Shown: one piece after another, positions 5,403 through 56,854 of the stretch
How positions within the stretch are numbered: position 1 is the stretch's first letter
How the letters are laid out: the number at the start of each line of letters is the position of its first letter
NCBI GenBank assembly: GCA_020851835.1
Contig: JADZBZ010000214.1
Span: forward strand, 1 to 57,246
Reading direction: 5' to 3'
Origin: Acidobacteriota bacterium
GTDB taxonomy: Bacteria > Acidobacteriota > Vicinamibacteria > Vicinamibacterales > UBA2999
DNA length: 57,246 nucleotides
The notes under the pieces: generated by a model
The model's input: only the letters and a program-made list of their open reading frames with translations
Told to the model about the DNA's origin: nothing
The model's database searches: none
Translations under genes and position numbers: made by a program

Positions 5403-8132
5403 CTACTCGTCGCGCAGCGCTTCGATCGGCTGGATGCGCAAGCCCTGCCGCAACGGACCAATCGCCGCAATTACGCCGATCGTCATCGTGAGCAAGACGA
5501 CGGCCGGCAGCAGCATCGCGCGGTAGTTCTGTATCATGTCGCCCTCGAGCATCTGCTCCAGGCCAACGGCGCCGATCACGCCGAGCATCGCGCCGGCGCC
5601 CAGTTGGGCGAGGACGCGCGAGAAGATGCCGAGGAGGATCCGGTTACGGTTGGCGCCCAGCGCCGCGCGAATGCCGATTTCGCGCCGCCGCCGCGCCACG
5701 GTGAACGACATCAGCGAGTAGATGCCGGCCGACGAGAGCAGCAGCACGCTCACGATCACCAGCCCAAGGCTGACGCCGATCAGCCGCATCATGCCCTGAG
5801 CCTGCCGGAACGCGATGGCGGCGGTGGACACGTCGAGCACCAGCAGGTCCGGATCGACCGACGCGCTGAGGTCGCGTAGCGGCTCGGCAAGCGCCGCCGG
5901 ATCGCCGGTGCGCGCCCGCACATTGAGACGGGCAGGATACAGGTCGCTGGCAGCGACGGCGTGGTAGACCCGACCTTCCGATTCATCGTCGAACGACCCG
6001 GGCACAGGGAAGTTGGGCACCACGCCGACGATTTCATACCAGCGCTCGAACACGACGTGCTGGGACGGCGCCTCGCGGCTCCGCCCGACGTACTTGATTC
6101 GGCGGCCGAGTGGATTAGCGCCACCGAAGACCTGATCGACCAACCCGCGGCTGACCAGCACGCCAGGCGTCATACCGGCGGTGTCCGCCGACGCATCGGC
6201 GGGTGTCAGGCCGCGCCCGATGCTCACCGGCACGTCGAACGCTGAAAAGAAGTTGGCGGTGACGCGGTTGAACCGCACCAGGGTGCCGCGCTTGGTGCCC
6301 TCGACGATGTTGTAGTCGACCGGGTCGATGGGCACCGGCACGCCTTCTGCCTCGACCACCAATGCAAGTTCGCGGCCAGGACTGGTCAGCGAGAACGTCA
6401 CCTCACGCACGCGTGCGTCGTCTCTCAAGCGGCGTTCGATGTCCGCAAGGGCGCTGCCATAGCGGTCGGCAAAGGCCTGGTCAACCGTCTCGGTCGGCGC
6501 GGCCACGGCGCGTTCGAGCGACAGGCTTGCGTTGAGGAACTCGGCGGTGGCGTAGCCGCCGCCAGACTCGATGCGGAGCGCGCTCCAGGCAAAATAGGTC
6601 GCCATCGGCAGCAGCGCGACCGTCACCGCCACCTGCGCCACGATCAGCGCCGTCCATAGCCGGCCCATCTGCATGCGCGATCCGCTGCCGGGTGACAGCG
6701 TCTGCAGGCGCGTGTGGACCTGGGGACCGGTCGCCTTGAGCGCCGGCGCCACGCCGACAATGGCCGCCGCCAGCAGCGTCAGCCCGACGACGTAGATCAC
6801 GGTACTGGTCTGAAGCTCCGGCGAGAACCAGAAGGGCCAGGCGCCGACCATGGTGCCCATGGCGAGCAGTGCGCCCTCGAGCTGGCGGAGCCCGACGGCG
6901 GTGAGGACGATACCGATGGCCGCCGACACGCTCGCCAGCATCAGCGCTTCGACGAACAGCTGCGCCACGATCCGGCGCCGGCTGGCGCCGAGTGCCCCTC
7001 GCACCGCAATCTCGCCTTGTCGCGTCGCGGTGCGGGCGTAGACGAGGATGGCCACGTTGACGCAGATGAGTATCAGTAACAGCACGATTGCAGTCTCGAT
7101 GGCATAGATCGCAAGAGCGCTGTCAGGGTCGTCGAGTTCGCTGAAGGCGTGGGCGTAGGCCAGCACCGTGGGGCGCAGGTGCTGGTGGGTTGCTGGCCAG
7201 GCCCCCGCGAGACGCTGGCCGATGGCCGCAAGCTCGGCCTGCGCACTCTCGAGCGTGGCTCCGGGCGCAAGCCGTCCAAACACGTTGATGCCGGGGCCGC
7301 TGCGCGGCGCCGAGGCGACCGCGTCGAGACGCCACGGGATCCAGAAGCTGTGATAGGTGGGGAAGCCGAACCCCTCTGGCATCACGCCGACGATGGTGTA
7401 GGCCGTGGCGCCAAGGTCCACCGCCCGGCCGACGATGTCCGGATCCGCCGCGAAACGGCGGACCCACTCGTCATGACCAATCACGAGCGCGTCGGGCGCG
7501 TCCGGGCGCTCGTCGTGCGGCAGCAGCGTGCGGCCGCGATACGCGGGGACGCGGGCGGCGCGAAACGCCGACGCCGAGATCTCGGCCACCATCACGACCT
7601 CGGGCGGCCGGCCGTCGACGATCAGGTTGCGCTGGACGTCGCGTGACACGCTGAAGTCTTCGATGGAGGTCGCGTCGCGCCACGCCTCGAGGTCGGCGAG
7701 CAGGCGGAACTCGCGATTGTTGGTCGAGGCGTCCCAGTTGACGAGTGAGACCAGCCGGTCGCTCTCGGGCAACGGCAGCGTGGTGCCCATCATCATCGAG
7801 CCGATGGTGAAGGCGCCGGCGGCGATGGTGATGCCGACCGACATGCCGAGCACGCTGACCAGGCTCAGGCCCGGATAGCGGAGCAGCATGCGCCAGGCCA
7901 GCGTGAAGTCGAGTGCCGAGAACGCCGGGCCCTGACGGAGCCGGCGCTGGCGCCGTCGCTCACCGAGGCCGGTGCCGAGCACGTTGAGGCAGGCGACGAG
8001 CGCGAAAGAGAGGCGAGCGTGTCCGTCTCGCGCGGCGAGCGCTCGCGCGAACGTTTCGGTCATCTCGGCCGCGTAGCGCTCGCGATGCCGGCGGGGAAAT
8101 GCGCGGAGGGCCAGGTGGTAGAGGCGTGTCAT
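5403..8132 (-). CDS. ADOP-family permease (duplicated MacB-periplasmic-domain/FtsX permease)
   Basis: 909 aa. Two FtsX-type C-terminal modules (...EIAVRGALGASRRRIV... and ...EIGIRAALGANRNRIL...). Ends ALRDE. Translationally coupled to the upstream PadR. Confidence 0.85.
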   Translation of the reverse strand: MTRLYHLALRAFPRRHRERYAAEMTETFARALAARDGHARLSFALVACLNVLGTGLGERRRQRRLRQGPAFSALDFTLAWRMLLRYPGLSLVSVLGMSVGITIAAGAFTIGSMMMGTTLPLPESDRLVSLVNWDASTNNREFRLLADLEAWRDATSIEDFSVSRDVQRNLIVDGRPPEVVMVAEISASAFRAARVPAYRGRTLLPHDERPDAPDALVIGHDEWVRRFAADPDIVGRAVDLGATAYTIVGVMPEGFGFPTYHSFWIPWRLDAVASAPRSGPGINVFGRLAPGATLESAQAELAAIGQRLAGAWPATHQHLRPTVLAYAHAFSELDDPDSALAIYAIETAIVLLLILICVNVAILVYARTATRQGEIAVRGALGASRRRIVAQLFVEALMLASVSAAIGIVLTAVGLRQLEGALLAMGTMVGAWPFWFSPELQTSTVIYVVGLTLLAAAIVGVAPALKATGPQVHTRLQTLSPGSGSRMQMGRLWTALIVAQVAVTVALLPMATYFAWSALRIESGGGYATAEFLNASLSLERAVAAPTETVDQAFADRYGSALADIERRLRDDARVREVTFSLTSPGRELALVVEAEGVPVPIDPVDYNIVEGTKRGTLVRFNRVTANFFSAFDVPVSIGRGLTPADASADTAGMTPGVLVSRGLVDQVFGGANPLGRRIKYVGRSREAPSQHVVFERWYEIVGVVPNFPVPGSFDDESEGRVYHAVAASDLYPARLNVRARTGDPAALAEPLRDLSASVDPDLLVLDVSTAAIAFRQAQGMMRLIGVSLGLVIVSVLLLSSAGIYSLMSFTVARRRREIGIRAALGANRNRILLGIFSRVLAQLGAGAMLGVIGAVGLEQMLEGDMIQNYRAMLLPAVVLLTMTIGVIAAIGPLRQGLRIQPIEALRDE

Positions 8133-8491
8133 TTCGGGCCTCCGAACATGTTCTGCGCGCGGGCCACTTCGAGGAGCGCCCGCAGGCGTTCCGATTCCGC
8201 GCGCGCCACTGCGCGGCCGAAGCTGGTGCGCTGGTAGTACCGCCGAGCCGGCCCGCCGCTCGCATCGCCCTTCGGCGTCGATTCGGTGACCAGGCCTTCG
8301 TCCACCATCCTGGCGAGCGCGGCGTAAAGGGTGCCGGGGAGGATGGCCTCGCGGCCGTCGGTCATGGCCGACACCACCTGCATGATGGCGTAGCCGTGCA
8401 GGGCGTCGCCGTCGCCTAAGGCGAGCAGCACCTGGAAGGTGGAGTGTTTGAGCGGGAGCAGCTCAGCCGGGTCACGCGTCAGTCGGCGCAT
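8129..8491 (-). CDS. PadR-family transcriptional regulator
   Basis: LLALGDGDALHGYAIMQVV...GTLYAALARMVDEGLV is a winged-helix PadR signature. ATGA overlap with the ADOP gene. Confidence 0.85.
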   Translation of the reverse strand: MRRLTRDPAELLPLKHSTFQVLLALGDGDALHGYAIMQVVSAMTDGREAILPGTLYAALARMVDEGLVTESTPKGDASGGPARRYYQRTSFGRAVARAESERLRALLEVARAQNMFGGPK

Positions 8492-10682: not shown

Positions 10683-10791
10683 GAGAAGCGTTCCTCCAAG
10701 GCAGAGCTTACGCCGCCTGGCAACGTGCGTGCGCGCGATTGCGGCTCATGAGCAGGCCGCCCAACACCATGAGCGATGGTATATTTCTGCC

Positions 10792-11037
10792 ATGCTGACT
10801 ACCATTGACGGGGCCGGTCGAATTGTCATTCCAAAGGCCACTCGCTCGAGGCTGGGCCTCGAGGCCGGCAGCGTGGTCGAAGTTCGTGAACGCGACGGAC
10901 TGCTGGAGATTGAGCCCGTGGCCACCGTGATGACGCTCAAGCCACGCGGCGGTGGGCTGGTCGCCGTTCCCGAAGAACCGCTGCCGCCCCTGACCGATGC
11001 GATGGTCCGGGCCACGCTCGAGGGGACACGGCGGTGA
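10792..11037 (+). CDS. vapB: AbrB/SpoVT-type antitoxin (VapB-like)
   Basis: MLTTIDGAGRIVIPKATRSRLGLEAGSVVEV is a SpoVT/AbrB swapped-hairpin motif. Overlaps the downstream PIN gene. Confidence 0.8.
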   Translation: MLTTIDGAGRIVIPKATRSRLGLEAGSVVEVRERDGLLEIEPVATVMTLKPRGGGLVAVPEEPLPPLTDAMVRATLEGTRR

Positions 11038-11438
11038 TCGCCGTGGACACGAGCGTGGCGGTAGCGGCGTTTGCCAGCTGGCACGAGGGGCACGCCTCGG
11101 CGGCGGCGGTGCTCACACGAGCGCCGAGGATTCCCGCCCACGTCGTGATTGAAACCTTCTCGGTCCTGACCCGCTTGCCGCCACCTCATCGGGCGCCTGC
11201 GGATGTGGTGCAGGCCTTTCTGGCAGGGCGGTTCGGCGATGCGCCCCTGGTGCTGCCGCCGCGGAGACACATGGGGCTGATCGAGATGGCGAGCCGCGAG
11301 GGGCTCACCGGCGGGGCCATCTACGACGCGCTGATCGCGGCCACCGTGCTGCATGCCGGCGCACGGCTGGTCACGCGGGATCAACGGGCGCGGATCATCT
11401 ACGACCGCGTGCGTGTGCCGTACGACTTCCTTGGCTGA
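11034..11438 (+). CDS. vapC: PIN-domain toxin (VapC)
   Basis: MIAVDTSVAVA... and ...GGAIYDALIAATVL... with acidic PIN residues. Coupled to vapB. Confidence 0.8.
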   Translation: MIAVDTSVAVAAFASWHEGHASAAAVLTRAPRIPAHVVIETFSVLTRLPPPHRAPADVVQAFLAGRFGDAPLVLPPRRHMGLIEMASREGLTGGAIYDALIAATVLHAGARLVTRDQRARIIYDRVRVPYDFLG

Positions 11439-11799
11439 CCCGCGCCTCTGGCGCGATGGAGCAGCGTGGGGTCGTTCATCTGCGGAGAGGTTCTCGGCGT
11501 CGCGCGGGTCGGGCACGCACCGCCGGATGACGTTCCGGAGGCCCCGCCCCGCGTTCCAGGACGTCGACAATGCGCCGGTTCGAATCGAGCGCCGTCAGCG
11601 CCAGGCCCGTAAGCCCTCCCTCTACGGGATGTAGACGGATGGTCGGCGCCGGATGTTACGCGCGGGTGGTCACGCTCCGCACGTAGCGACCCACCGCATG
11701 AGTGATGAGGCCTCCGCTCAGCATGGTCACGGCGACAGGGAAACCTCGACGTCGCGCAGCAGCCAGGCCGACACGCCCAGCGCGACGACGACGTAGGCG

Positions 11800-11926: not shown

Positions 11927-12681
11927 TCAATCCTCATGGCGGCGGCCATATCCGTCGCACTGTTCGGCATCCTTCCAGCTAACACCTTGGGAAATGCCCG
12001 CGCCCTAGCGCCTCCTGGAACACGATGTCGGCATCCTCCCCAATCCGAGATCAGACATCCCGTCGATCCGGTCGGTCGGTCTCCAACGCGCCCGTCGGCT
12101 CCCGGTACAGACAGGCGCGCGCCGCGGGCTGCAGCGTGTGATCGGGCCGTTCCAGCCGCATGACGCGATCGGCCACGCGGCGCCGTTCGTCGTAGACGGC
12201 CGCCGGCAGCTCGGGCATGGCAGCGATATCGACCCGCGTTCTAAAGTCCCAGCAGCCGTGCACCATCACTCATGGACATGGCGCGATGGACCCGGACTCT
12301 GGTTCACGCAATCCGGCTCCCCATCGTCGAGCGGTCGTCGCCGCGGCCGGTCCTGGGGGGTACCGTGTCGGGCCGGGCAACCCTGCGACCTGCAGGCGCG
12401 AGGACGAGACCGTGCCCGGCAATCTTGCGGAGTCGACGGCGACCGGGACGGCGTCAGCCACGGCGGTCGTCCTCCCGCGACTGCCGCCTCGGGCAGCGGG
12501 GCGCCGGTCCGCCGGCGCGCCGTCGCCAACGCCGGTGCTGCCGGACGGAGATGGCCGCAGGTCGATAGCCGGGACACGTCCGACCTGTTGGCAAGCACGA
12601 CACAGACCCCGGCACGGGAGCACTGGACTGTTCCATGGAACGGCCCCGGCACAGTCCTGACGGCGCCGTATTCTGCCCTGT

Positions 12682-13269
12682 TCAACTCCGTACGTACCCG
12701 TGGAGTGCCGAGCGCTTTCCTCCCCGCCGGTGCACCTCATCTGACAGCGCGTGCACGCCGCTCGCATCGATCCACCGATTGTAGAAGTTGAAGAGCGCGC
12801 AGACGGTGATCGCGAAGTAGAGGGCCTCGTCGGTCCAGCCTGCGGCCCGCGGGACGTCCAGATCGGCGATGCTGAGCGCCGGCGAGGCATGATTCACCCG
12901 ATCGACGAATCGAAAGAGCACCTTGTGCCGTTCGTCGAGTGCGGACGACTCCAGGTCGGCTATCACGGAGTCCACCAGTGCCGAGTCTCCGAGCAACTCC
13001 GCCGCAACTGCGGCGTGGGACTTCAGTCAGAAGGAGCACTGGTTGCGCTTCGATGTGTACGCGGCGATCAGCTCGCGAATCCCGGGGCTGAGCGGCGCGG
13101 GCCCGCGCAGGATCTCCTGCGTGAAACGGGCCAGGTGGTCGGTCGCACGAGGAAGATAGGCGAACAGGTGCCAGATCTGGGGATACTCGGCACCTTGCGC
13201 CCGCATCTGTTCGATGAGCGCGCGGTAGGGGCCCGGCTGCGGGTTCTGTTCGACTTCAGGCATGAACAT
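12682..13269 (-). CDS. AhpD/carboxymuconolactone-decarboxylase-like peroxidase-related protein with an in-frame TGA at 13027..13029 (selenocysteine candidate, or a pseudogene)
   Basis: ORFs 13027..13575 and 12682..12996 are in the same frame, with the two stops 345 nt apart. The joined sequence reads ...SKRNQCSF[TGA]LKSHAAV..., i.e. CxxCxxxH with TGA at the second Cys. Joined length ~195 aa fits the family. Confidence 0.55.
13000..13015 (-). promoter_or_regulatory. SECIS-like hairpin candidate (CGCCGC-AGUU-GCGGCG)
   Basis: Perfect 6-bp GC stem with a GU-containing tetraloop, starting 11 nt 3' of the in-frame UGA on the minus strand. Confidence 0.4.
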
Positions 13270-13429
13270 CGGTTTGATCCGGCCACCTGTGAGAGGTTGT
13301 CGAGTCCGCGTCACCGACTCCACGACGGACGGGGACTTCAACGTTCCCCGGACTGTACTCCACGGCACGGGCTTCCCGCGCACCGGCGCCAGCCTCGTCG
13401 CGGCCAGCTCATCCGGTCTGGATCGACCG

Positions 13430-13600
13430 GCTAGCGCCTGGCAGATCGTCCACCAGCTCCTCATCGAGTCGAGCGTGCTGGCCGTGCGGGGCGGATTGGG
13501 CGGGCTGCTGGTGGCGGCCGGCCTCTTGATCCGCAGCCTCGCGGACGTGAGCCGTGTGGACCTCGGCCTGAGCACCGAGCACGTCGTCGGCTCGGCCGGG
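13430..13600 (+). pseudogene. ADOP/MacB-type permease internal fragment
   Basis: ...QIVHQLLIESSVLAVRGGLGGLLVAAGLLI... matches the region after the first FtsX module in the intact ADOP genes here. No start, and the frame is lost on both sides. Confidence 0.45.
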
Positions 13601-13739
13601 GCGCCATGTATGCAGGGCTATTCGCCCGAGCGCACGGGGCCTTCCTCGAGCAGCGCGAGCCGGCTGAAGGAGATCGTGCACCGGTGCATCGGTGAGCGCC
13701 GCAAGCGTTACGACAGCGCGGACGAGCCCGGCGCGGTCT

Positions 13740-14924
13740 TCACGTGCCGGGCGCACCGGGCCCCAGCCCCATCACCACCAGCGTCTGATCGTCGTCGGCC
13801 TCGCGCCCTCCGGCAAACCGCTCGAGGTCCGTCATCACCGCCGAGACGATGGCCTCGGGACTCGACGCGGCGGAGCGCGCCAGTGACGTCGTCAGCCGGT
13901 CCTGATCGAAGAGGGTGCCGTTGGGCGCCTGCCGATCGGTAATGCCGTCGGTGTAGACCACCAGGCGATCGCCGGGCTCGAGGCGCTGCTCGGGGCACTC
14001 CACGTTGCCGAGGTCCCTGAACAGCAGCATCATGGCCGACCCGCCCGCCGCGGGCACCACTTCGCGCCCGGGGCGGATCAGCAGGGGCGTCGGGTGGCCC
14101 GCCGACACGGCCCGCCACGTACGGCGCTCGACGTCGAGCACGCCGTAGACGGCCGTGGCGAACATGGCCGTGTCCCACAGGAAGTCGAAGTGACGGTTGA
14201 TGTGGGTCAGCACGGCCAGCGGGTCGTCGGGCACGCCCGGGAAGGTGTGCAGCACCGCCCGGATCATGGCCATGACGATGGCGGCCGGTGCGCCATGACC
14301 CGAGACGTCGGCCACCATCACGCCGAAGCGGCGGCCGCCGAGCGCAATCACATCGTAGTAGTCGCCGCCGGCGTGTCGGCTGGTCTGGTAGAAGGCTGCG
14401 AACGCCGCCCCGGCGTCGGCCGGCATGGTCCTCGGCAGCAGCCGTCGCTGCATGTCGGCCGCGGCCGCCAGCTCGCGGTCCAGACGGTCCCGGCTCCGCC
14501 GCAACTCGCGCTCGAGATACTGGCGCGTCAGGTGGTTCGCCACGCGCGCCAGCACTTCCTCGGCCTGAATCGGCTTGGTGATGTAGTCGGCCGCGCCGAT
14601 GCTGAGGCCCGACACCTTGTCGGAGACTTCGCCGAGCGCCGACAGGAAGATCACGACGCTCTCCTGGGTCTCGGGCCGGCTCTTGAGGGCGCGGCACACC
14701 TCGAAACCGTCCATGTCCGGCATCATCACGTCCAGGAGGATCAGGTCGGGCCGCGCCCGCTCCGCGATGTCGAGGGCCGCGCGGCCCGAGGTGGCCGCCA
14801 GCAGGCGATGGCCGCTCGCGTGCAGGGTCCGGACCAGGACCTGCAGGTTCACGGGGCTGTCGTCCACCACGAGGATGGTCGACGAGGGCACACGCGCCAC
14901 GCCACTCGGGCCGGGCGCGCTCAT
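13740..14924 (-). CDS. Response regulator receiver fused to a PP2C/SpoIIE phosphatase (RsbU-like)
   Basis: REC: ILVVDDSPVNLQVL...DLILLDVMMPDMDGFEV. PP2C: GGDYYDV...VADVSGHG...VVYTDGITD. Confidence 0.85.
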   Translation of the reverse strand: MSAPGPSGVARVPSSTILVVDDSPVNLQVLVRTLHASGHRLLAATSGRAALDIAERARPDLILLDVMMPDMDGFEVCRALKSRPETQESVVIFLSALGEVSDKVSGLSIGAADYITKPIQAEEVLARVANHLTRQYLERELRRSRDRLDRELAAAADMQRRLLPRTMPADAGAAFAAFYQTSRHAGGDYYDVIALGGRRFGVMVADVSGHGAPAAIVMAMIRAVLHTFPGVPDDPLAVLTHINRHFDFLWDTAMFATAVYGVLDVERRTWRAVSAGHPTPLLIRPGREVVPAAGGSAMMLLFRDLGNVECPEQRLEPGDRLVVYTDGITDRQAPNGTLFDQDRLTTSLARSAASSPEAIVSAVMTDLERFAGGREADDDQTLVVMGLGPGAPGT

Positions 14925-17644
14925 CGGGCCCCCTCCGAACGCCCGAGCAGGCGGTGCGCCAGGTCCGCCAGTCCCTCGAAGTCGAACTGCGCGTTCAGCC
15001 GCGCGATGCGCTGGCCGAGAGCGGCTTCCCCGTCATCGCCCGCGACCAGCTCCTGCGCCAGCGCCTCGATGTCGGTCACACTGCCGATGCTGGCGGCTTC
15101 GTGGAGCCGGCGCGCCAGGTCCACGCGCCGCGAGTGGTCCGACAGCTCGGGCTCGCGCGGCGGTTCGGGCGCGGGTGTGACGATGAAGCGGACACCGAGG
15201 TGCTCGCGCAGCGCCGCATAGAGCGACTCCGCGCGAACGGGCTTGGACAGATAGTCGGTGCACCCCGCGTCCCGGGCGGCCTGCCGGGTATCGCCGAAGG
15301 CGCTGGCGGTGACGGCAATCACCGGAATCGATGCGACCGAGGCGTCCTGCTTGAGCCGGCGCGTGGTCTCGAGACCGTCGAGCCCGCCCATGCGGAGGTC
15401 CATGAGGATCACGTCTGGTGCGTGTGCGCGCGCCAGCCGCAGCACTTCGTCGCCCCCGGCCGCCGTGATCACCCGAACGCCCGCGCTCTCGAGCAGCCGC
15501 GCCAGGATCCGGCGATTCACCGTGCTGTCGTCCACGACCAGGGCCGTGAGGTCTTCGCCCGGCGCCAGGCGGGCATCGAGCGGAGGATCGAGCGGCTCGT
15601 CGGCCGGCGGCCCGGCGCCCTCGCCCGCCGCGACGAGGGGAAGCGCAAAGAAGAAGCGGCTGCCCTCCCCCGGCGTGCTCTCGACGCGCAGGTCGTCGCC
15701 CATGGTCTGGATGAGATGCCGACTGATCGTCAGGCCCAGCCCGGTGCCACCGGCGGCCGCCCCCGCCCGGGTCTGGGTGAAAGCGTCGAAGATGCCCGTC
15801 AGCGCCTCGGGCTCGATGCCCACACCGGTATCGCTCACCTCGAAGCACAACTGGCGGTCGTCGACCACTTCGATGGCCAGGCGCACCTCGCCCTGATGCG
15901 TGAACTTGAGGGCGTTGCCGAGCAGGTTGAGCAGGACCTGCCTCAGGTGGCGCCCGTCCAGGCAGACCCGCTGCGGCACATCGGGTGCGATTGTCATGGT
16001 CAGCAGCAGACCCTTGCGGCGTGCGGCCTCGGCCACGACGTACTTCAGGTCGATGATGAGCTGCGCCAGGTTGGTCGACGTGGGCTCGATGTCGATGCGT
16101 CCCGCCTCGATGCGCGACAGGTCCAGCACGTCGTTGATGAGGTCCAGCAGGTGCGCGCCGCACCTGGCGATGGCCTCGAGTGCGTCGCGCTGCGTGGCGT
16201 TCAGCGTGCGATCGCGCTGCAGGAGCTGGGTGTAGCCCAGCACGCCGTTGAGCGGGGTCCTGAGCTCGTGGCTCATGCTGGCCAGGAAGTCGCTCTTGGC
16301 GCGGGTCGCGGCCTCGGCCGACTCCTTCGCGGCGCGGAGCTGCGCCTCCTGTTCGCGCCTGGCCGTGATGTCGCGGATGAACGCCCCGAAGAAGTAGCCC
16401 CCGGCCAGCGGTATGGGTGACGTGATGGTGATCTCGATGGGAAACTCGCCCCCCGTGCGATGGAGCGCGGTCCGTTCCAGCCGGGTGTTCAGGACCGGGG
16501 CATCCCCTGTCTCGAGGAACCGCCGCATGCCCCGATGGTGTGCCTCGCGATAGGCCGGCGGAATGATGGTCTCGGCCATGTCGCGGCCCAGGACCTCCTC
16601 GGGCGACCATCCGAACACGGCCTCGGCCTGAGCGTTCCACGTGACGATGGTTCCGGCCGTGTCGATGCCGACGAACGCGTCGTGCGCCGTATCGACGACG
16701 AGGCGGGCGCGCGCCTCGCTGTCGGCCAGCCTCGCCAGCGCCTCGCGCCGTTCCTGGTCCGCCAGCGCCATGGCGATGAGGTTGGCCGTCGAGATGGCGA
16801 AGTTCTGTTCGTCCACCGTCCAGTGGCGCGCGCCGCCGACGTGCTCGGCGCAGAGCACGCCCCTCATGTGGTCGTCCTGCCGCAGCGGCACGTCCAGCAT
16901 GGCGCCGATGCCGTTGGGCGCCAGATAGTCCGACTGGAAGTCCCGCGTCCGCGGGTCGGTGCGGGCATCGGCGGCGGCGATCACCCGCTCGCGTTCGAGC
17001 GCATCGAAGTACGGCCCCGCCTCGGCGCGATGGAGCACGGCGCCCGACTCGTGGCTGCCGGGCGTGCGGCGGTGGAGGTCCACGCAGCGGATGGCCTGCC
17101 GGGACTCGTCGATCCGCCAGAGGCTCAGGCGCTCGACGTCCAGGGTCCGCGCCGAGACCTCGAGGATGCTCCGCAGGCGCTCCTCGAAGCGGCCGCTCGA
17201 CCCGGCATCACGCGCCGTGAGTTCGGTGAGGGCCCCGCTCTGCGACACCAACCGGGCCTCGCTGGCCTTGAGGATCCGCTCGGCCAGGACCTGGTCGGTG
17301 ATGTCGCTGAACACGGTCAAGATGGCGTCCTCACCGCCGAAGGTGACTCGCCGGGACGACACGCTGGCCCAGAGGGTCTCGCCCGTGGGACGCTTGAGCT
17401 CGAACCGACGGTTCTCGGCGCGCCCCTCGCGCGTCACCTGCTCAGCCAGCCGGCGGCGCTCATCCGGGTTGACGTAGTAGTCGGGCGCGTGCTCGCCGAC
17501 GGCGTCCTCCTGGGCGATGCCGAATACGTCGGACGTGCGCTGGTTGATGGCGAGGACGACGTGGTCGCGCAGGCGCGTCACCACGGCGGGGAACGGACTC
17601 GCGTCGAACAACTGGAAGAAGAGTGCGTCGTCAGAGTCCGACAT
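14921..17644 (-). CDS. Hybrid sensor histidine kinase (PAS-GAF-PAS-HisKA-HATPase-REC-HPt-like)
   Basis: H-box SHELRTPLNGVLGY, G-boxes DTGVGI/GTGLGLTIS, REC LVVDDSTVNRRIL...VILMDLRMGGLDG. Start moved to MSDSDDALFF. 4-nt overlap with the REC-PP2C gene. Confidence 0.85.
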   Translation of the reverse strand: MSDSDDALFFQLFDASPFPAVVTRLRDHVVLAINQRTSDVFGIAQEDAVGEHAPDYYVNPDERRRLAEQVTREGRAENRRFELKRPTGETLWASVSSRRVTFGGEDAILTVFSDITDQVLAERILKASEARLVSQSGALTELTARDAGSSGRFEERLRSILEVSARTLDVERLSLWRIDESRQAIRCVDLHRRTPGSHESGAVLHRAEAGPYFDALERERVIAAADARTDPRTRDFQSDYLAPNGIGAMLDVPLRQDDHMRGVLCAEHVGGARHWTVDEQNFAISTANLIAMALADQERREALARLADSEARARLVVDTAHDAFVGIDTAGTIVTWNAQAEAVFGWSPEEVLGRDMAETIIPPAYREAHHRGMRRFLETGDAPVLNTRLERTALHRTGGEFPIEITITSPIPLAGGYFFGAFIRDITARREQEAQLRAAKESAEAATRAKSDFLASMSHELRTPLNGVLGYTQLLQRDRTLNATQRDALEAIARCGAHLLDLINDVLDLSRIEAGRIDIEPTSTNLAQLIIDLKYVVAEAARRKGLLLTMTIAPDVPQRVCLDGRHLRQVLLNLLGNALKFTHQGEVRLAIEVVDDRQLCFEVSDTGVGIEPEALTGIFDAFTQTRAGAAAGGTGLGLTISRHLIQTMGDDLRVESTPGEGSRFFFALPLVAAGEGAGPPADEPLDPPLDARLAPGEDLTALVVDDSTVNRRILARLLESAGVRVITAAGGDEVLRLARAHAPDVILMDLRMGGLDGLETTRRLKQDASVASIPVIAVTASAFGDTRQAARDAGCTDYLSKPVRAESLYAALREHLGVRFIVTPAPEPPREPELSDHSRRVDLARRLHEAASIGSVTDIEALAQELVAGDDGEAALGQRIARLNAQFDFEGLADLAHRLLGRSEGAR

Positions 17645-17866
17645 GGGTGGCGATTGGTCGGCGACGCTCGCGGCGCCCCGGACAATCGCGTTACGGTACC
17701 CGTGACCGAACCCGACGTCAAGGCGCCGGCTCGTTCGTGTCAAGACTCGTTGGAAATGTCCCCTTCCCAAGAAGCTGCTGGAGGCCTGTGGACGCTCGTG
17801 GAAACCCACCCCGTCGTCAGGGCACTGTCACCACGAGCTCATCCGACGACAGACCCGCGCCCCTAG

Positions 17867-20638: not shown

Positions 20639-23314
20639 TCACTCGTCCCTGAGCGCCGTCAAGGGATCCACTCGCGCCGCCCGCCGCGCGGGTGCCCAGG
20701 CGGCGACCAGCGCCACCACGAAGATGGCGATGCCAATCCCGCCGACCACCATCGGGTCGCCGGGCCGTACTTCGAAGAGCAGGCTCGACATGACGCCGCC
20801 GAGCGCCGGCGACAGGGCAACGCCGGCGAACGCGCCCAGGGTCAGCGGCCAGGCCGACTGGCGGACGGTGAGCCCCGCCAGCGACGGTCCGGATGCCCCA
20901 AGCGCCAGGCGGACGCCGAATTCGCGCGTGCGCTGCGAGACGAAGTATGCGAGCACGCCGTAGACGCCAAGGCCCGCCAGCACGAGGCCGATGACCGCGA
21001 AGGCGCCCAGCAGGCGGAGTAGCGTCTCCCGCCAGTCGAGGGAGGCGCCGATGACCGCCGCGAGCGGTCTGGCCTGTGCGGCCGGCAGCCCGGGCTCCAC
21101 TCGCCTCAGCGCCTCGCGGAGCGGCCGCTCCAACCCCGCGGCTCCGGTTCGGCTCCGCGCGACGATGGTCATCACCGGCCACGCGGCCTGGGCGTAGGGC
21201 CGGTAGAACTCGCGTTCGGGCGCGGCGTCCAGGCCGAAATGCCGCACGTTGTCGGCGACCCCGACGATGGTCATCCAGGGATTGCCGCTGTCAGCCCCGC
21301 CGACCCGGAAGCGCTGTCCAACCGGTGAGGCGTCCGGCCAGTAGCGCTCCTGCATCGCGCGATTGACGATCGCCACCGGCGCCCCCTCGCGGCGGTCGTG
21401 CTCGTCGAAGTCGCGGCCTTCGACGAGCGGAATCCCGACGGACGCGAAGTACCCGGGGCAGGTCAGTCGGTAGTTGGCGCTGGGCCGCTGTCCGGGTGGC
21501 GGTACGGGCTGCCCGTCGATGGAGATCCCTCGACTCGCATTGGCCCCGGTGAACGGCAGGTGGCTGATCGCGCCCACGCTGGCGAGGCCGGGCAGTTGTC
21601 CCGCTTCGCGAGTCAGGTCGGCACAGAACGTGGGGCGCGCCGGCGGGCCGTAGGTGTCCGTTTGCGGCAGCGACACCTGGAGGGTGAGGACGCCCTCGGG
21701 ATCGAGTCCTGGTTCCACGGCGAGGAGATGCGCCAAGCTCCTGGCCATCAGCCCGGCAGCGCTCAAGACGACCACGACGAGCGCGACCTCGAGCGCGATC
21801 AGCGCGGACCGTGCCCGGGTCGCAACCGCCGTGGCGCCGCGATCCCCGGCCCTCAGGCCGGCCTGCCAGTCGGCGCGCCGAAGCAGGAGCAGCGGCGCCA
21901 GCCCGACGACCACCGCCGTCAGCATCGACAGCAGCACGGCAAAGGCCGCACCGCGCGCGTCGAGCGAGACCGCGACTTCGCCACGCATGGGCAGCTCGCG
22001 GAACCCGGTGGTGAAGATGAGTTCCACCGCCCGGGTGGCGACCCAGGCCCCCGCCACGCCGACCAGGCCCGCCATCGCGGCAAGCACCGCATTCTCGGCC
22101 AGCAGTTGCCTGGCGATCTGCGAGAGCCGCCCGCCGAGCGCCACGCGCACCGCGAACTCGCGCCGTCTCACCAGGGCCTGGCCGAGCTGCAGGTTGACCA
22201 CGTTCACGCAGGCGATGAGCAGGACGAAGAGCGCGGCCCCCAGCACCGCCCGGAGCATCGGGCGGACGCGCAGCAGGCCGAACTCCGACATGCGGGTCGC
22301 CACCGCGGTCTGGTTCGGGCTCGACTCCGGGTACCGCGCCGCGAGCGAACGGCCGACCTGGTCCATCTCGGCCCGCGCCTGCTCGAAGGTGACGCCGGGG
22401 CGCAGCCGGCCGGCCGCGAAGAACGAGTGGGCGCCGCGCTCTTCGTCCTGGGTCGTCAGGGCGATGGGGATCCAGACACCCGTCCGGCGATCGGGAAATG
22501 CGAAGCCCGCTGGCATCACGCCGACAACGTCGTAGGGGAGGCCGTTGAGGCGGATGGAACGGCCCACGACGTCGGGCGCGCCGCCAAAGTGCGCGTGCCA
22601 GACCCGATCGCTGATGACGGCCACGTGCCGGTCCTGCTCCTCGTCGGCGGTGAACACGCGCCCGAGGGCGGGCGCCGCGCGCAGGACGTCGAAGAGGCTC
22701 GCCGTGGTCCGGAGACCGGGCACCTGCTCCGGCTCCTCCCGGGCGGACACGTTGAGCGTGATGTGCTCCCACAGCGCCAGGGTCTCGAAGCTCTTCGCCT
22801 CCCTGGTCCAGTCCTGGTAGTTGGGTGCCGAGACGATGTAGGGATTGGCCGCGTTGTCGGCGTTGGCGTCCCACAGCAGCACGAGGCGATCGGGTTCGGA
22901 GAACGGCAGCGGACCGAGCAGCATGGCGTCGAACACGCTGAAGACGGCGGTGCTCAGGCCGACGCCGAGGCCCAGGGTCCCAATCACGAGCGCCGAGAAC
23001 GCGGGCCGCAGCCAGACGAGTCGAACCGCCTGCCGCAGGTCGCCCATCGCGCCGGCGCCCCTGGCACCCGCCGGGGTCAGAGACGGCGAACGGCGGCGGC
23101 GGCGCACGGCCATCGCGCGCGCCACCGGTTGCATCCGTTCCAGTTCGCGCGCGACGGCCTCGGCCGCTTCTGCCTCGGACCGCCCGGCACGGAGATAGTC
23201 GCGCTCGAGCAGGCCGAGATGGTCGGTGATCTCCTCGATGACCTCGCGGTGATCGCCGGGCGGCAGCCCCTCCGCCGCGAGTCGCTCGGTTACCCGCGCC
23301 CGCCAGTCAGGCAT
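20639..23314 (-). CDS. ADOP-family permease (duplicated MacB/FtsX)
   Basis: 891 aa. Same architecture as 5403..8132. Ends ALRDE. Overlaps the upstream PadR stop. Confidence 0.85.
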   Translation of the reverse strand: MPDWRARVTERLAAEGLPPGDHREVIEEITDHLGLLERDYLRAGRSEAEAAEAVARELERMQPVARAMAVRRRRRSPSLTPAGARGAGAMGDLRQAVRLVWLRPAFSALVIGTLGLGVGLSTAVFSVFDAMLLGPLPFSEPDRLVLLWDANADNAANPYIVSAPNYQDWTREAKSFETLALWEHITLNVSAREEPEQVPGLRTTASLFDVLRAAPALGRVFTADEEQDRHVAVISDRVWHAHFGGAPDVVGRSIRLNGLPYDVVGVMPAGFAFPDRRTGVWIPIALTTQDEERGAHSFFAAGRLRPGVTFEQARAEMDQVGRSLAARYPESSPNQTAVATRMSEFGLLRVRPMLRAVLGAALFVLLIACVNVVNLQLGQALVRRREFAVRVALGGRLSQIARQLLAENAVLAAMAGLVGVAGAWVATRAVELIFTTGFRELPMRGEVAVSLDARGAAFAVLLSMLTAVVVGLAPLLLLRRADWQAGLRAGDRGATAVATRARSALIALEVALVVVVLSAAGLMARSLAHLLAVEPGLDPEGVLTLQVSLPQTDTYGPPARPTFCADLTREAGQLPGLASVGAISHLPFTGANASRGISIDGQPVPPPGQRPSANYRLTCPGYFASVGIPLVEGRDFDEHDRREGAPVAIVNRAMQERYWPDASPVGQRFRVGGADSGNPWMTIVGVADNVRHFGLDAAPEREFYRPYAQAAWPVMTIVARSRTGAAGLERPLREALRRVEPGLPAAQARPLAAVIGASLDWRETLLRLLGAFAVIGLVLAGLGVYGVLAYFVSQRTREFGVRLALGASGPSLAGLTVRQSAWPLTLGAFAGVALSPALGGVMSSLLFEVRPGDPMVVGGIGIAIFVVALVAAWAPARRAARVDPLTALRDE

Positions 23315-23651
23315 GGCCGAGACCCGCCGCCTTGGTCAGTGCCGTCACGAACGCCGCCCACCGGTTCCGCTGGGCCTTGAGCACCCGCTGCCCCGCGCCG
23401 GTCAGACGGTAGGCGCGGCGTCGGCGCTGTCCGGCCAGCTCCACCCAGCGCCCCACGATCCAGCCGCGGTCCTCCAGCTTGTAGAGCAGCGGGTACAGCG
23501 AAGCGACGTGGAAGACCAGCAGACCGTCGGACCGCCGGGCGATGACGCGCGCGATGTCGTACCCGTGGAGGGGGCCGTCCTCGAGCGCGGAGAGGATCAG
23601 CAGTTCGGCGCTCCCCTTTCGGGCGGCCGACTCGGCGATAGGGTCTCCCAT
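23307..23651 (-). CDS. PadR-family transcriptional regulator
   Basis: LLILSALEDGPLHGYDIARVI...ASLYPLLYKLEDRGWI. Confidence 0.85.
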   Translation of the reverse strand: MGDPIAESAARKGSAELLILSALEDGPLHGYDIARVIARRSDGLLVFHVASLYPLLYKLEDRGWIVGRWVELAGQRRRRAYRLTGAGQRVLKAQRNRWAAFVTALTKAAGLGHA

Positions 23652-30309: not shown

Positions 30310-30642
30310 ATGGCGAAAACACCCTACCTGGGCGAGTTCGAATACGCGGTCATGCTGGCCGTCATCCGGCTCGGCGATGAGGCCTACGGCGTCCCGATTC
30401 GCGAGCTCATCGAGGCGCGGACGGGCCGGCCAGTCGCGCGCGGGGCGCTCTACACCGGCCTCGAACGCCTGGAGATCAAGGGCTGCCTGCGCTCCCGCAT
30501 GGGCGATCCCATGCCGGAGCGCGGCGGCCGCGCGCGGCGATACTTCACGGCCACACCGCTCGGGCTTCGCGCGCTCAGGAGCACGCACGCGGCGCTCTCC
30601 AACCTGTCGAAGGGCCTCGAGGCCATCCTGGAGCAGCCATGA
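30310..30642 (+). CDS. PadR-family transcriptional regulator
   Basis: GEFEYAVMLAVIRLGDEAYGVPI...GALYTGLERLEIKGCL. An alternative start at 30283 is possible. Confidence 0.85.
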   Translation: MAKTPYLGEFEYAVMLAVIRLGDEAYGVPIRELIEARTGRPVARGALYTGLERLEIKGCLRSRMGDPMPERGGRARRYFTATPLGLRALRSTHAALSNLSKGLEAILEQP

Positions 30643-33332
30643 CGGCCCCACCGACCCCTCCGGCGCTTGCCGAGCGTGTGCTTCGCGCTGCCATTCGCGA
30701 CCCGGAGTGGCGGGAGGCGGTCAGCGGCGACCTGTGCGAGGAGTTTGACGACATCGCCCGCCGCTACGGGCTCCCGGCCGCAAGGCGCTGGTACTGGCGT
30801 CAGGCGGTGGGACTCGGCGCCCGATTCGTCGCGGGCCGCGTCGTGCCCCGCGCGGCGCCGCAGCGCTGGCAGGTGCGGGACCGGGACTTGGAGCCGCGGG
30901 CCTCGTGGACGGCCTTCCGCGACATCGCCTATGCCTGGCGGGCCATCGCCCACCGTCCGGGCGTGTCCTTCGTCATCGTCGCGACCCTGGCGCTCGTGCT
31001 CGCCGCCAACGCGACCGTGTTCAATCTGGTCGATGCGCTGTACCTGCGTCCCTTCCGGTTTCCGGGCGTCGACAGGCTCGTGGTGGTCGCCTCGGCTGCC
31101 GACAACGGCGCCGAGACCGACTACAACTCGGTCGCGCCGGCCGACTTTCGCGACTGGCAGCGCGAGAGCACCACCATGTCGCTGCTTGCAGCCGCGGCCT
31201 TCTGGGACCCGAACATGTCCGGCGTGGACGAACCGGAGCAGGTGCCGGGGTTCCTGGTCAGTCCGGCGTTCTTCCGTGCGATTGGCGCCGAGCCGCTCAT
31301 CGGGCGGACGTTCCTCGATTCCGAAACCATTCCCGGCAGCCACCGCCGCGTCGTGGTGTCGCACGGTCTGTGGGCGCGCCGATTCGGTTCGGACCCCCGC
31401 CTGGTCGGACGAACGATCCGCTTCGACGGCGAGCCGTACGAAGTGGTGGGCATCATGCCGCCGGGCCTGGCCCTTCCCTACGGCGCGCAGGCGTGGGCGC
31501 CGCTCGCCTACACCGAGGAACAGTGGGCCGAGCGCGGGCGGGGCGGGTTGCTCGTCATCGGACGCGTCGCCGACGGGCAGACGGTCGGATCCGCACGCGC
31601 CGAGATGACGTCGATCGTCGGCCGGCAGCGTCACGAGCATCCCGAGACCAACGCGCAGCGGGACCTCACCCTCGCCTCCTTCACGCGCGCCCTCGCGGAC
31701 GGCTACGCCGCGCCACTGCTCGCCATCTGGCAGGCCGCGGCCTTCCTGCTCCTCGTCATCGCATGCGCCAACATCGCCAATCTCCTGCTGGCTCGCGGCG
31801 CGGAACGCCACCAGGAGTTTGCCGTCCGCATGGCGCTCGGCGCCGGCCGCTGGCGAGTCGCGCGGCAGTTGCTCTTCGAGGGTGCCCTGCTCACCTTCGC
31901 CGCCCTCGTCGTGACCGTGCCGCTGGCGATGGCCGGTGCGGAAGCGACGCGGCGCGGCATGCCGCCGGGACTTCACCGGTGGGTCCCCGGCATCGACTTC
32001 ATCCGATTCGACCCCTCGTCGCTGGCCGTCATGGCAGGGCTCGGTGCCGTGGCCACGCTGGTCTTCTCCTGGCTCCCGGCGCTCCAGGCCTCCGGCGCCG
32101 CCGTCTCCCAGTCGCTTCGCGACGGCGGTCGCACCATTGCCGCCGGTCGGTCACGCGGATGGCTGGGGACGGGACTCGTCGTCGGACAGGTCGCCCTGGC
32201 CGTCTGTCTCGTGGCGGGCGCCGGCCTCGTGCTGGGCGGGATCGACAAGGCCGTGAACGGCGCGCTGGGCTTCGACAAGCAGCACGTGCTGACGGCCGAG
32301 ATGCGTCTGGACGGGCCCGCCTACCAGGAGCCGGAACAGCGGCGGCAGTTCGTCGAGCGTGTCTTCGACCGGCTCCGGGGCATGCCGGCCGTGGAACGGC
32401 TGGCGGCTTCCTCGTCGCTGCCGTATTCGCCGGGCGGCGGCCTGCTCTCCCGGCCGATCTATCCCGAAGGTCTCGATCTGACGGAGGCCGAGGCTCGTCC
32501 CGCGCGCCTCCACCGCATCACGCCCGACTACTTCGACGTGCTCCGCATGCCCATCGTCGAGGGACGACGGTTCACCGAGGCCGATCGACCCGGGGCGCCA
32601 TCGGTGGCCATTGTCAGCCGGAACTTCGGCGAGCGGTACTGGCCCGGCGAATCGGCCGTGGGCCGGCGATTCCGCACCGCGCCGGATGGGCCGTGGCTGG
32701 AGATCGTCGGCGTGGCCGGCGACATCGTGCAGGACATGCTGCTCGCCCGCGAATGGCCGGCGTTCTACACGCCGGCGGCGCAGGAGCCGACCTTCGCGAC
32801 GGCGTTTGGCATACGGACCGGGAGCGATCCTCTGGCCGTGAGCGGTGAGCTCCGCCGGGCCATTTCGGCCGTCGATCCCGATCTGCCGCTGCTGCAGCTC
32901 CGCAGCCTCGAACAGGTGGTGGCCGAACGCGCCGGCGGCATCGCGCACCTGGCCCGGCTCCTCGGCGTGATGGGCGCCGTGGCACTCCTGCTGGCCCTGA
33001 TGGGCGTCTACAGCCTGATGGCGTACGCCGCGGCGCGACGCACGCAGGAGTTCGGCGTCAGGATGGCGCTCGGCGCCACACGCTGGCAGGTGGTGCGCCT
33101 GTCGCTCAGGCAGGCGGCGGTCCTGACCGGACTTGGCCTCGTCGCCGGCGCGGTCCTAGCCGCCGCGCTTAACCGCGTCATGTCCTCGACGCTCTTCGGG
33201 CTGGTCTCGTTCGACGCCGCCGCGATCGCCGTCATGACGCTGGCGATTGGCGCAACCGCACTGGTGGCCGGGTGGCTGCCGGCACGGCGCGCCGCGGATC
33301 TCGATCCGACCGTTGCGCTCCGGATGGAATGA
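30639..33332 (+). CDS. ADOP-family permease (duplicated MacB/FtsX)
   Basis: 897 aa. Same architecture as the other two intact ADOP genes. Ends ALRME. ATGA overlap with the PadR gene. Confidence 0.85.
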   Translation: MTAPPTPPALAERVLRAAIRDPEWREAVSGDLCEEFDDIARRYGLPAARRWYWRQAVGLGARFVAGRVVPRAAPQRWQVRDRDLEPRASWTAFRDIAYAWRAIAHRPGVSFVIVATLALVLAANATVFNLVDALYLRPFRFPGVDRLVVVASAADNGAETDYNSVAPADFRDWQRESTTMSLLAAAAFWDPNMSGVDEPEQVPGFLVSPAFFRAIGAEPLIGRTFLDSETIPGSHRRVVVSHGLWARRFGSDPRLVGRTIRFDGEPYEVVGIMPPGLALPYGAQAWAPLAYTEEQWAERGRGGLLVIGRVADGQTVGSARAEMTSIVGRQRHEHPETNAQRDLTLASFTRALADGYAAPLLAIWQAAAFLLLVIACANIANLLLARGAERHQEFAVRMALGAGRWRVARQLLFEGALLTFAALVVTVPLAMAGAEATRRGMPPGLHRWVPGIDFIRFDPSSLAVMAGLGAVATLVFSWLPALQASGAAVSQSLRDGGRTIAAGRSRGWLGTGLVVGQVALAVCLVAGAGLVLGGIDKAVNGALGFDKQHVLTAEMRLDGPAYQEPEQRRQFVERVFDRLRGMPAVERLAASSSLPYSPGGGLLSRPIYPEGLDLTEAEARPARLHRITPDYFDVLRMPIVEGRRFTEADRPGAPSVAIVSRNFGERYWPGESAVGRRFRTAPDGPWLEIVGVAGDIVQDMLLAREWPAFYTPAAQEPTFATAFGIRTGSDPLAVSGELRRAISAVDPDLPLLQLRSLEQVVAERAGGIAHLARLLGVMGAVALLLALMGVYSLMAYAAARRTQEFGVRMALGATRWQVVRLSLRQAAVLTGLGLVAGAVLAAALNRVMSSTLFGLVSFDAAAIAVMTLAIGATALVAGWLPARRAADLDPTVALRME

Positions 33333-34575: not shown

Positions 34576-34639
34576 CAAACGGCAAGGTCCTCGGCTCTGG
34601 AGGGTCGACACTAGTACTACTTTGTCAGGTTCACGGGTG

Positions 34640-35165
34640 GGCTGATCGATAGCGCTTGTACTGCGACGCGGGATCTCGTACGCTACGCGCGTGACGACGG
34701 GGCCGCACGGGCGCTCTTGCGCCGCCTGGGGCAATTCCTCGACGGCTTCAGCGCGTGCTTCAGTCGCCGCCCGCAACGCGAGGCGGCGAGTCGCTACCTC
34801 GACGGCCTGCTGAACGACAGCGAGCGGAAGTCGATGCAGGCGATGCATGGCCGGTTGAGTGATCCCGGCCAGTATCAGCCGCTGCAGCAGCACTTCATCA
34901 CGGACTCGCTGTGGGACGCCGCGCGGGTGTGGACGCAGCTGCGGGCGGCCGTGCCGGTGCGCGCCGGCATTCTCGCCATCGACGACACCGGCTTCCCCAA
35001 GCAGGGGACGGACTCGGTGGGCGTGCAGCGCCAGTACTGTGGGGCGCTCGGCAAGGTCGGCAATTGCCAGATGGCCGTCTCGAGCGCGCTGATCGCCGAC
35101 GGCCGCACGTGGCCGCTCGCCTTCGACCTGTATGTGTCGACATCGTGGACGGACGATGCGGATCG
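34640..35165 (+). mobile_element. IS701-family (IS4-like DDE) transposase, N-terminal ~170 aa remnant
   Basis: ...FSRRPQREAASRYLDGLLNDSERKSMQAM...ILAIDDTGFPKQGTDSVGVQRQYCGALGKVGNCQ... is typical of IS701-type transposases. No ATG start; truncated near 35165. Confidence 0.65.
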
Positions 35166-35189
35166 GCGCGCCCTGGTGGGTACTGCGTG

Positions 35190-35330
35190 TGCAAATGGCG
35201 AGAACGATTTCGAGTGCGCCGCTTGAGGGATTGACCGACGAGCCGCGTCCGGGGGCCCCCCCGCAAAGCCACCGACGATGCGGCCGGTGCAGGATTGTGA
35301 CGCGAGTTGTCAGAAACTGGCGCGCGGAAG
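35190..35330 (+). mobile_element. Possible IS630-type transposase HTH fragment
   Basis: ...LEGLTDEPRPGAPP... resembles the HTH-linker motif of IS630-family transposases. Very short and frameshifted. Confidence 0.3.
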
Positions 35331-36363: not shown

Positions 36364-36810
36364 TCACGACCTGTCCGGATCGGTCGGATGCACGGCCAAT
36401 TCGAACCCATGGCCTCCAGCGAGTCGAACGGCGGCGAAGTGACGCACGTCGCGGGTCGCGAGTCGATAGACGCCGATCGACTCGGCCAGCGCGACGATCG
36501 AGGAGTCGACGAGGCCCAGGCGAAGATCCGCGAAGCGTCGGTCCACGTCCATCGCACGCGCGAGCTGGCCGAGGGTTGGCGGCGCGTAGGTGAAGGCACC
36601 GCGCGACAGATCCTGCATGAACGCCTGCATCGCTGCGCGTTCGTCGCGAAGGAAGTAGTCGACCTCGGCGAGGACGAGTCCCGGAACGTAGCGCGTGCGG
36701 GCCTGGTCGATGACGCGGCGAAAGCGCCGGTGGTCTGGCGCGCCCTCGACGAGATAGTCGATGAGCGCGCCGGTGTCGCAGATGAGCGCGGCTGCGCTAC
36801 CGGCCGGCAC
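36364..36810 (-). CDS. vapC: PIN-domain toxin (VapC)
   Basis: ALICDTGALIDYL...LVDSSIVALAE... acidic PIN residues. Overlaps the upstream RHH gene. Confidence 0.8.
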   Translation of the reverse strand: MPAGSAAALICDTGALIDYLVEGAPDHRRFRRVIDQARTRYVPGLVLAEVDYFLRDERAAMQAFMQDLSRGAFTYAPPTLGQLARAMDVDRRFADLRLGLVDSSIVALAESIGVYRLATRDVRHFAAVRLAGGHGFELAVHPTDPDRS

Positions 36811-53386: not shown

Positions 53387-56028
<2,642 letters not shown>

Positions 56029-56048
<20 letters not shown>

Positions 56049-56766: not shown

Positions 56767-56854
56767 GCCTACATGGTATGACTCTGGGCGACTGGCCGGG
56801 GGTTCGGGCCGGGCGGCCTTGGAGAAAGCCGGGCCTTCGGCCGATATCTGACTC

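Follow-up and report, generated by a model that had tools for sequence, protein, structure and literature searches.

What is to be made of a stop codon that lies in the middle of a gene, exactly where the protein family keeps a catalytic cysteine? This question is raised by positions 12682..13269 (minus strand) of a 57,246-nucleotide stretch of DNA from an Acidobacteriota bacterium (contig JADZBZ010000214.1), the whole of which is called the window here. The 195-codon minus-strand frame at this position encodes a protein of the AhpD/CMD family, and the sequence and its translation show a single in-frame TGA in it (13029..13027). A reading made from the sequence alone had described two same-frame minus-strand open reading frames (ORFs) parted only by this TGA, and a hairpin, CGCCGC-AGUU-GCGGCG (13015..13000), which begins 11 nt 3' of the UGA; both descriptions are exact in coordinates and in sequence. 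It had also proposed that the UGA encodes selenocysteine (Sec) in an AhpD/CMD-family protein with the help of an fdhF-like selenocysteine insertion sequence (SECIS), and this proposal is supported by the TGA of the relatives, the covariation of the hairpin and the control genes with a Cys codon. Judged from sequence comparison, the gene is very probably a selenoprotein gene with a bacterial SECIS element and Sec at residue 81, rather than a nonsense pseudogene.

When the TGA is read through, the gene is complete, with an ATG at 13269, 195 codons including that of Sec81, and a terminal TGA at 12684..12682. The mRNA at the recoding site is AAC CAG TGC TCC TTC UGA CUG AAG UCC CAC GCC GCA GUU GCG GCG GAG, and the UGA (13027..13029, minus strand), putatively read as Sec, takes the second position of the motif C78-S-F-U81-L-K-S-H85. 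Gene callers using translation table 11 split the gene at this codon. The window comes from a metagenome. The TGA-containing gene sequence is identical in contigs from SRR11294030, SRR11294029, SRR11294019 and SRR11294025, and since these are four independent run assemblies (two hold the whole gene, and two are truncated past the TGA), the TGA is not an assembly error.

For family scoring, Cys was put in place of the TGA in the joined protein. The protein matched TIGR01926 (peroxid_rel, 'peroxidase-related enzyme') with 88.1 bits against the NCBIfam cut-off of 81.8 (protein 5-169, model 5-170 of 178), the AhpD core domain TIGR00778 (ahpD_dom) with 30 bits (cut-off 27.8), and PF02627 CMD with 28.8 bits (cut-off 23). 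The nearest relatives in the PDB are 2pfx (E = 7e-16) and 6k40 (E = 2e-15), together with 2oyo, 3c1l and 2prr, which are 'uncharacterized peroxidase-related proteins' and one AhpD (6k40). In the alignment with 2pfx, C78-S-F-[TGA]-L-K-S-H85 corresponds to CFYCLVAH, with the TGA opposite the second Cys, as the sequence-only reading had placed it. Three residues near it are invariant in all 152 distinct sequences. The codon of Cys78, the first Cys of C-x-x-U (13036..13038, minus strand), encodes Cys in 152 of 152 with both TGC and TGT in use, and this residue would be the resolving thiol. His85 (13015..13017, minus strand), the His of C-x-x-U-x-x-x-H, is His in 152 of 152 and aligns with the family-motif His of 2pfx; the last base of its codon doubles as the first base of the hairpin. 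Glu66 (13072..13074, minus strand), 12 residues before Cys78, is likewise found in 152 of 152 and conserved in 2pfx, and is presumably the counterpart of the AhpD proton-relay Glu, a role that we take from published AhpD work. Membership in NF041238 (AhpD_rel_CFYUT) was also considered and rejected, as the match reached 34.7 bits against a cut-off of 175 and covered only the C-terminal third of the 357-position model.

A protein search returned 2718 relatives, and the motif was read in the 120 best clusters. C-x-x-C is found in 91 of these 120, which gives Sec/Cys pairing among the homologues. T-x-x-C is found in P0027, P0040, P0043, P0070 and the locus L168, where the first Cys is lost and the second is kept, and on the sequences this retention fits the Sec position being that of the essential nucleophile. 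The T-x-x-C relatives fall outside the Sec clade in our rough tree. In the 22 closest of the 120 clusters (63-76% identity), Trp stands at the position of the second Cys (C-P-F-W-[LIT]-K-[SA]-H-A-A-V-A-A-E-L-L), and all of them come from JGI contigs of about 1 kb. In the best match (L001, 660-1256), the one of the 22 that was checked at the DNA level, this 'W' is a TGA, and the same hairpin follows 11 nt after it. It seems that the gene caller read TGA as Trp on short contigs, and that the database proteins misreport Sec as Trp. Two further kinds of relative were seen among these proteins. P0007, P0010, P0016 and P0018-P0021 (Terriglobia and others) are about 330 residues long, with an N-terminal extension of about 135 residues before the AhpD-like domain and the motif C-x-Y-C-A-N-S-H. 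P0032 drops out of the family frame over precisely the C-x-x-U/hairpin region, a stretch of about 28 residues, and resumes it afterwards, which suggests paired indels or assembly errors.

At the DNA level, related loci were collected from GTDB species genomes (80) and JGI metagenome contigs (80) by a profile search with patterns that lie away from the TGA (FNFYNRW and RELIAA[YF]TS), with no selection for TGA itself. TGA at the homologous codon and the hairpin were found together in 160 of 160 kept loci, in addition to L001, at 68-87% protein identity to the query. The sequence-only reading had named orthologues that all carry TGC or TGT with no hairpin as the mark of a simple pseudogene, and the alignment gave the opposite. 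All 80 genome matches are Acidobacteriota metagenome-assembled genomes, from Vicinamibacterales (the best, 87%), Bryobacterales, Terriglobia, Solibacteraceae, Acidobacteriaceae and Candidatus Acidiferrales. In each of the 155 loci with sequence as far as the terminal stop, the frame past the TGA is open for at least 112 codons; one locus has 219, and the other 154 have 112-122. Residues 3' of the TGA are 95-99% conserved while their codons vary freely, and therefore the region past the TGA is translated and under purifying selection.

The hairpin needs the same comparative treatment. Perfect hairpins with a 6-bp stem and a 4-nt loop occur 0.68 times per kb per strand in the window, which is 69% GC, so that about 0.9 TGA-hairpin juxtapositions are expected by chance among 1261 TGA trinucleotides on both strands; one is seen, that of this gene. 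In a single sequence the hairpin is thus not beyond chance, and the case rests on the comparison with relatives. In the window (13000..13015, minus strand) it has six G-C pairs and an A-U pair closing the loop around an apical G-U, and its distance of 11 nt from the UGA is the same in every related sequence. Across 150 distinct sequences, 98.7% of the cells of the alignment are paired; 0 of 500 shuffles reach the observed pairing or covariation score, and when the partner strand is slid by 1-3 columns only 28-83% remain paired. Changes on both sides are found in three of the seven stem pairs. Loop positions 1 and 4, which are the third positions of codons +6 (GCA/GCG) and +7 (GUU/GUC), are A..U in 104 sequences, G..C in 44-45 and otherwise in 2; because they change together, the stem is effectively one of seven pairs closing on the apical G-U. 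Changes in the stem are rare and keep the pairing, either by compensation (C-G to U-A in three sequences) or as wobble pairs (G-U and U-G). The loops are AGUU, GGUC or AGGU, with CGGU in two; over the 150 sequences G31 is invariant and U32 is kept in at least 90%. A small apical loop with a conserved guanosine is a criterion for bacterial SECIS elements (PMC1088965). RNAalifold keeps only five pairs, and there is no conserved lower helix.

The same region is constrained at the nucleotide level. Synonymous entropy outlines a zone from codon -1 (Phe) to codon +10 (Glu), including the 11-nt spacer (12997..13032, minus strand). Ala codons have an entropy of 1.4-1.7 bits elsewhere in the gene, compared with 0.16 bits at +5 (GCC), 0.06 at +8 (GCG) and 0.56 at +9 (GCG) in the stem. 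The Phe codon at -1 (13030..13032 in the window) is UUU in 142 of 152 relatives, in a gene where Phe is mostly UUC elsewhere, codon +10 is GAA in 122 of 147, and about 70% of sequences have C directly after the UGA. The preference at -1 and after the UGA suggests selection on the immediate recoding context. Taken together, the alignment shows a hairpin that covaries and is evidently under selection at the nucleotide level; by analogy with known elements, it would be bound by SelB.

Relatives with another codon in place of the TGA served as controls. The locus with T-Q-F-C (L168) encodes the same peptide, HAAVAAELL, by GCT GCG GTG GCC GCC, with which the hairpin is impossible, and the locus with C-E-F-C (L167) is also without it. 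A third locus (L166, 1001-1618, protein P0025) carries the Cys form C-Q-F-C within the Sec clade and has a decayed hairpin, CGCCGC-GAUU-GCGACG; it looks like a Sec-to-Cys reversion with an eroding SECIS. In a fourth (L169, 501-1154, P0042), TGA is replaced by GAA for Glu (TTT GAA CTG) and the hairpin is kept as TGCCGC-GGCC-GCGGCG, which could be a true loss of the nucleophile or a one-base assembly slip. These comparisons, made on the sequences, show the hairpin as tied to the TGA and as absent or decayed in the Cys forms. In a rough neighbour-joining tree without support values, 103 Sec tips fall in a clade of 105, in which the exceptions are the L166 protein and the GAA sequence of L169, and Cys forms are the next relatives. 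On this tree the Sec forms appear to make up one clade, with rare later losses of Sec, and Sec may have arisen separately in the acidobacterial clade.

Several results weigh against reading the gene as a selenoprotein gene. First, the genes for Sec insertion were not found nearby. ARAGORN detected no tRNA in the window, Rfam at gathering thresholds gave only the signal recognition particle (SRP) RNA and no tRNA-Sec there, and Pfam searches of about 30 window ORFs gave no SelA, SelB or SelD, so that selA, selB, selD and tRNA-Sec were not found within the 57-kb window. Likewise, ARAGORN on all 165 related loci gave no tRNA-Sec, tblastn with E. coli SelD and SelB gave no match in the loci or the window (a weak negative, as the query sequences were unverified), and Sec machinery was not found in the 1.66 Mb of flanks of the related loci. 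Second, the window copy departs from its relatives at three places: it has Ser (C-S-F-U) where 153 of 157 relatives have Pro (PF), and its codons at -1 (TTC) and +10 (GAG) are those of the minority. Third, shuffles of the single sequence put the z-score of the 45-nt fold at only -1.4, and Rfam at E <= 10 gave no SECIS family match in the hairpin region, only one chance match on the other strand, a negative of little weight. Finally, no recurring redox or operon partner pointing to a substrate was found among about 155 related loci. A crude screen of GC content at third codon positions for other window genes with an in-frame TGA failed to discriminate at the high GC content of the window, and missed the gene under study too.

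Among the alternatives, the one that survives best is that the UGA is recoded as another residue, Cys or Ser, by a SelB-dependent selC*-type Cys-tRNA(UCA) or by an acidobacterial allo-tRNA suppressor. Acidobacteria have unusual 8/4 and 9/3 tRNAs that are possible nonsense suppressors, and selC* tRNA(Cys) opal suppressors mimic tRNA-Sec (PMC5389517); the failure to find tRNA-Sec or sel genes in the window or in the flanks of the related loci is also in line with this alternative. However, selC* was reported in anaerobic Firmicutes, Thermodesulfobacteria, Nitrospirae and Proteobacteria, and not in Acidobacteria (PMC5389517), and it is hard to explain why a costly UGA and hairpin would be kept merely for Cys, for which TGC would suffice. 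In addition, the recoded position is that of the redox nucleophile, a classic Sec site, and in the acidobacterial isolate Occallatibacter riparius DSM 25168, which serves as a Sec-utilizing test organism, the known selenoproteins include an AhpD-like one with a CPYU motif (PMC12013277). We therefore consider recoding to another residue improbable. The host presumably uses SelB and tRNA-Sec, for which the literature gives support at the level of the phylum: besides the O. riparius isolate, a 2006 census gave three selenoprotein families in Acidobacteria (PMC1794560). General reassignment of the codon does not apply, because TGA ends most genes in the window and, as a frequent normal stop, is not reassigned.

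The second alternative is a nonsense pseudogene, in which TGC or TGT of an ordinary AhpD-like gene mutated to TGA and the hairpin is an accident of the GC-rich Ala-Ala-Val-Ala-Ala stretch. The window by itself would allow this, since about one such hairpin beside some TGA is expected by chance, the fold z-score is weak, and remnants of mobile elements (fragments of a DDE transposase and of an integrase) are present. It is the relatives that make it very improbable: all 160 loci, at 68-87% identity, have the TGA, the frames past it are intact and encode conserved protein sequence, and the hairpin is kept at synonymous positions and covaries, yet the same peptide is encoded without the hairpin where the codon is TGC. 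The spread of one recent dead element is excluded by the protein divergence of 13-32% and the free synonymous variation. The sequence-only reading had, for its part, cautioned that the region is full of pseudogenes, and this was not borne out beside the gene, where both upstream genes, for a histidine kinase and for a response-regulator/SpoIIE protein, are intact.

It is highly unlikely, too, that two polypeptides are made, with an 80-residue product ending at the TGA and a second one initiated downstream, the fold being assembled from both chains. Table 11 gene callers split the gene in this way, and the window has a TTG eleven codons past the TGA; however, there is no conserved start codon or ribosome-binding site past the TGA, the codon after it is CTG, ATC, ACC, ACG or GTG, and the constraint on the next 10 codons is that of a hairpin and not of an initiation region. 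Such a split would also part the redox residues of C-x-x-C-x-x-x-H and remove the nucleophile. A sequencing error with a true codon of TGC or TGT has no specific support and is negligible, as the TGA is found in contigs of four separate runs and is shared by all relatives.

With the gene taken as a selenoprotein gene, its expression and function can be outlined as follows. The product would be an AhpD-like thiol/selenol oxidoreductase of about 21 kDa (CMD fold, TIGR01926) with the motif C78-x-x-U81-x-x-x-H85. With the UGA (13029..13027) in the A site, the downstream hairpin and its apical G-U would recruit SelB-GTP-Sec-tRNA(Sec), Sec would be inserted in place of termination, and 114 further codons would be translated. 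Sec81, which takes the place of AhpD's nucleophilic second Cys, would be the residue that attacks an oxidised substrate, for which a peroxide, a peroxiredoxin sulfenate or a disulfide are candidates. The adduct would be resolved by Cys78 with formation of an intramolecular selenenylsulfide, and His85 and Glu66 would form the proton relay. Both Sec as the inserted residue and these catalytic roles are predicted from the motif and its conservation.

The catalytic arrangement resembles that of AhpD of M. tuberculosis, whose catalytic residues are Glu118, Cys130, Cys133 and His137 and whose nucleophile is the second Cys. Glu66 followed after 12 residues by C78-x-x-U81-x-x-x-H85 reproduces both the motif and the spacing of these residues. 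In contrast, there is no significant full-length similarity to that protein and its entries are not among the PDB matches, the nucleophile would be Sec instead of Cys, and no adjacent ahpC was found near the gene. The hairpin can be compared in the same way with the E. coli fdhF SECIS, in which the G-U lies about 20-21 nt after the UGA. Both are stem-loops in the coding region at a fixed short distance past the UGA with an apical G-U, which in this clade lies 19-20 nt after the UGA, and the loop GGUC of about 30% of the homologues is what we take to be the fdhF loop sequence. The element of this clade differs in being shorter, with 6-7 conserved pairs, no conserved lower helix and no bulged U.

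That bacterial AhpD-like selenoproteins had already been described was correctly noted in the sequence-only reading. The family with C-x-x-U has been in the catalogues for two decades, its first descriptions coming from the Sargasso Sea and Global Ocean Sampling metagenomes. Those of the Sargasso Sea, 27 sequences with C-x-x-U, were assigned to COG2128 (PMC1088965), Global Ocean Sampling data gave 299 Sec forms and 902 Cys forms (PMC2398784), and a 2026 review table lists the AhpD-like selenoprotein under TIGR01926 with MCB9421940.1 as representative (PMC13188914). The window protein shares with this catalogued family the TIGR01926 model, the CMD/AhpD core, Sec at the second position of C-x-x-C-x-x-x-H, an apical-G hairpin immediately 3' of the UGA, and widespread Cys homologues. 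However, it is only 23% identical to MCB9421940.1, and unlike the marine family its clade appears to belong to soil Acidobacteriota (80 of 80 GTDB genome matches). The protein of O. riparius DSM 25168 (PMC12013277, Data S1) is of the same phylum and family and has Sec in the same column of the full-length alignment, with C-P-Y-U-L-D-S-H where the window has C-S-F-U-L-K-S-H, but at 26% identity over 173 residues it belongs to a different subfamily. The window protein is thus a new member of a catalogued selenoprotein family with an ordinary, if very compact, SECIS, and probably represents a distinct acidobacterial subclade of this known kind. A bolder interpretation, which we hold only tentatively and regard as rather unlikely, is that the Sec subfamily of the AhpD-like fold seen in at least 80 GTDB species (Vicinamibacterales, Bryobacterales and Terriglobia) evolved separately, spans the Acidobacteriota, has an unusually minimal SECIS and is systematically hidden by annotation, either as split ORFs or behind a 'Trp'. 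If this were so, it might rank as the most widespread selenoprotein in soil Acidobacteriota, and its near sequence-invariant 7-bp stem on a two-base G-U apex could point to a distinct mode of SelB recognition.

The surroundings of the gene were also surveyed. Upstream on the same strand (13740-17827, minus) lie two intact genes, for a PAS/GAF histidine kinase with a receiver domain (about 907 residues) and for a response regulator-SpoIIE/PP2C phosphatase (394 residues); a GAF/FHA/SpoIIE protein adjoins the gene in six related loci as well. An outer-membrane beta-barrel protein lies beside the related gene in 32 of about 155 loci and is its commonest neighbour. The 470-nt gap upstream of the selenoprotein gene has no recognisable sigma-70 promoter, and a scan of 12300..13800 for promoters and terminators gave nothing above shuffled expectation. 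Elsewhere in the window there are four large MacB_PCD/FtsX permeases at 5406-8462 (minus), 20642-23335 (minus), 30381-33329 (plus) and 53379-56519 (minus), one of them beside an ABC ATPase (56032-56865). Duplicated orphan permeases of this type are typical of Acidobacteriota, and the four genes agree with the Acidobacteriota taxonomy of the best matches. The bacterial small SRP RNA is at 47591-47689 (plus strand; Rfam RF00169, 65.5 bits, full length). Mobile-element and toxin-antitoxin material is represented by a truncated DDE_5 transposase (34615-35223, plus), a PIN-domain gene (36367-36840, minus), a phage-integrase-family fragment (37224-38042, minus) and a MazE-antitoxin/PIN pair at about 10790-11440 (plus), whose coordinates were mapped from gene calls on L002. 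The GC content dips to 65-66% around 36-40 kb of the window.

In conclusion, the gene should be annotated as one selenoprotein and not as two fragments or a pseudogene, and the same holds for its relatives in many soil metagenome contigs and in at least 80 acidobacterial genomes at the species level. Some of these relatives now stand in databases with Trp at the active site, the gene caller having taken TGA for a sense codon. General knowledge of selenoproteins is unchanged by it, as the family, the Sec position and the mechanism are established, and a specialist would not be surprised. Its compact and highly conserved SECIS could be studied in reporters. We believe that the value of the finding lies in the correction of annotation and in the wide and uniform spread of the gene in soil Acidobacteriota, where it would mark the lineages that carry it as selenium users.

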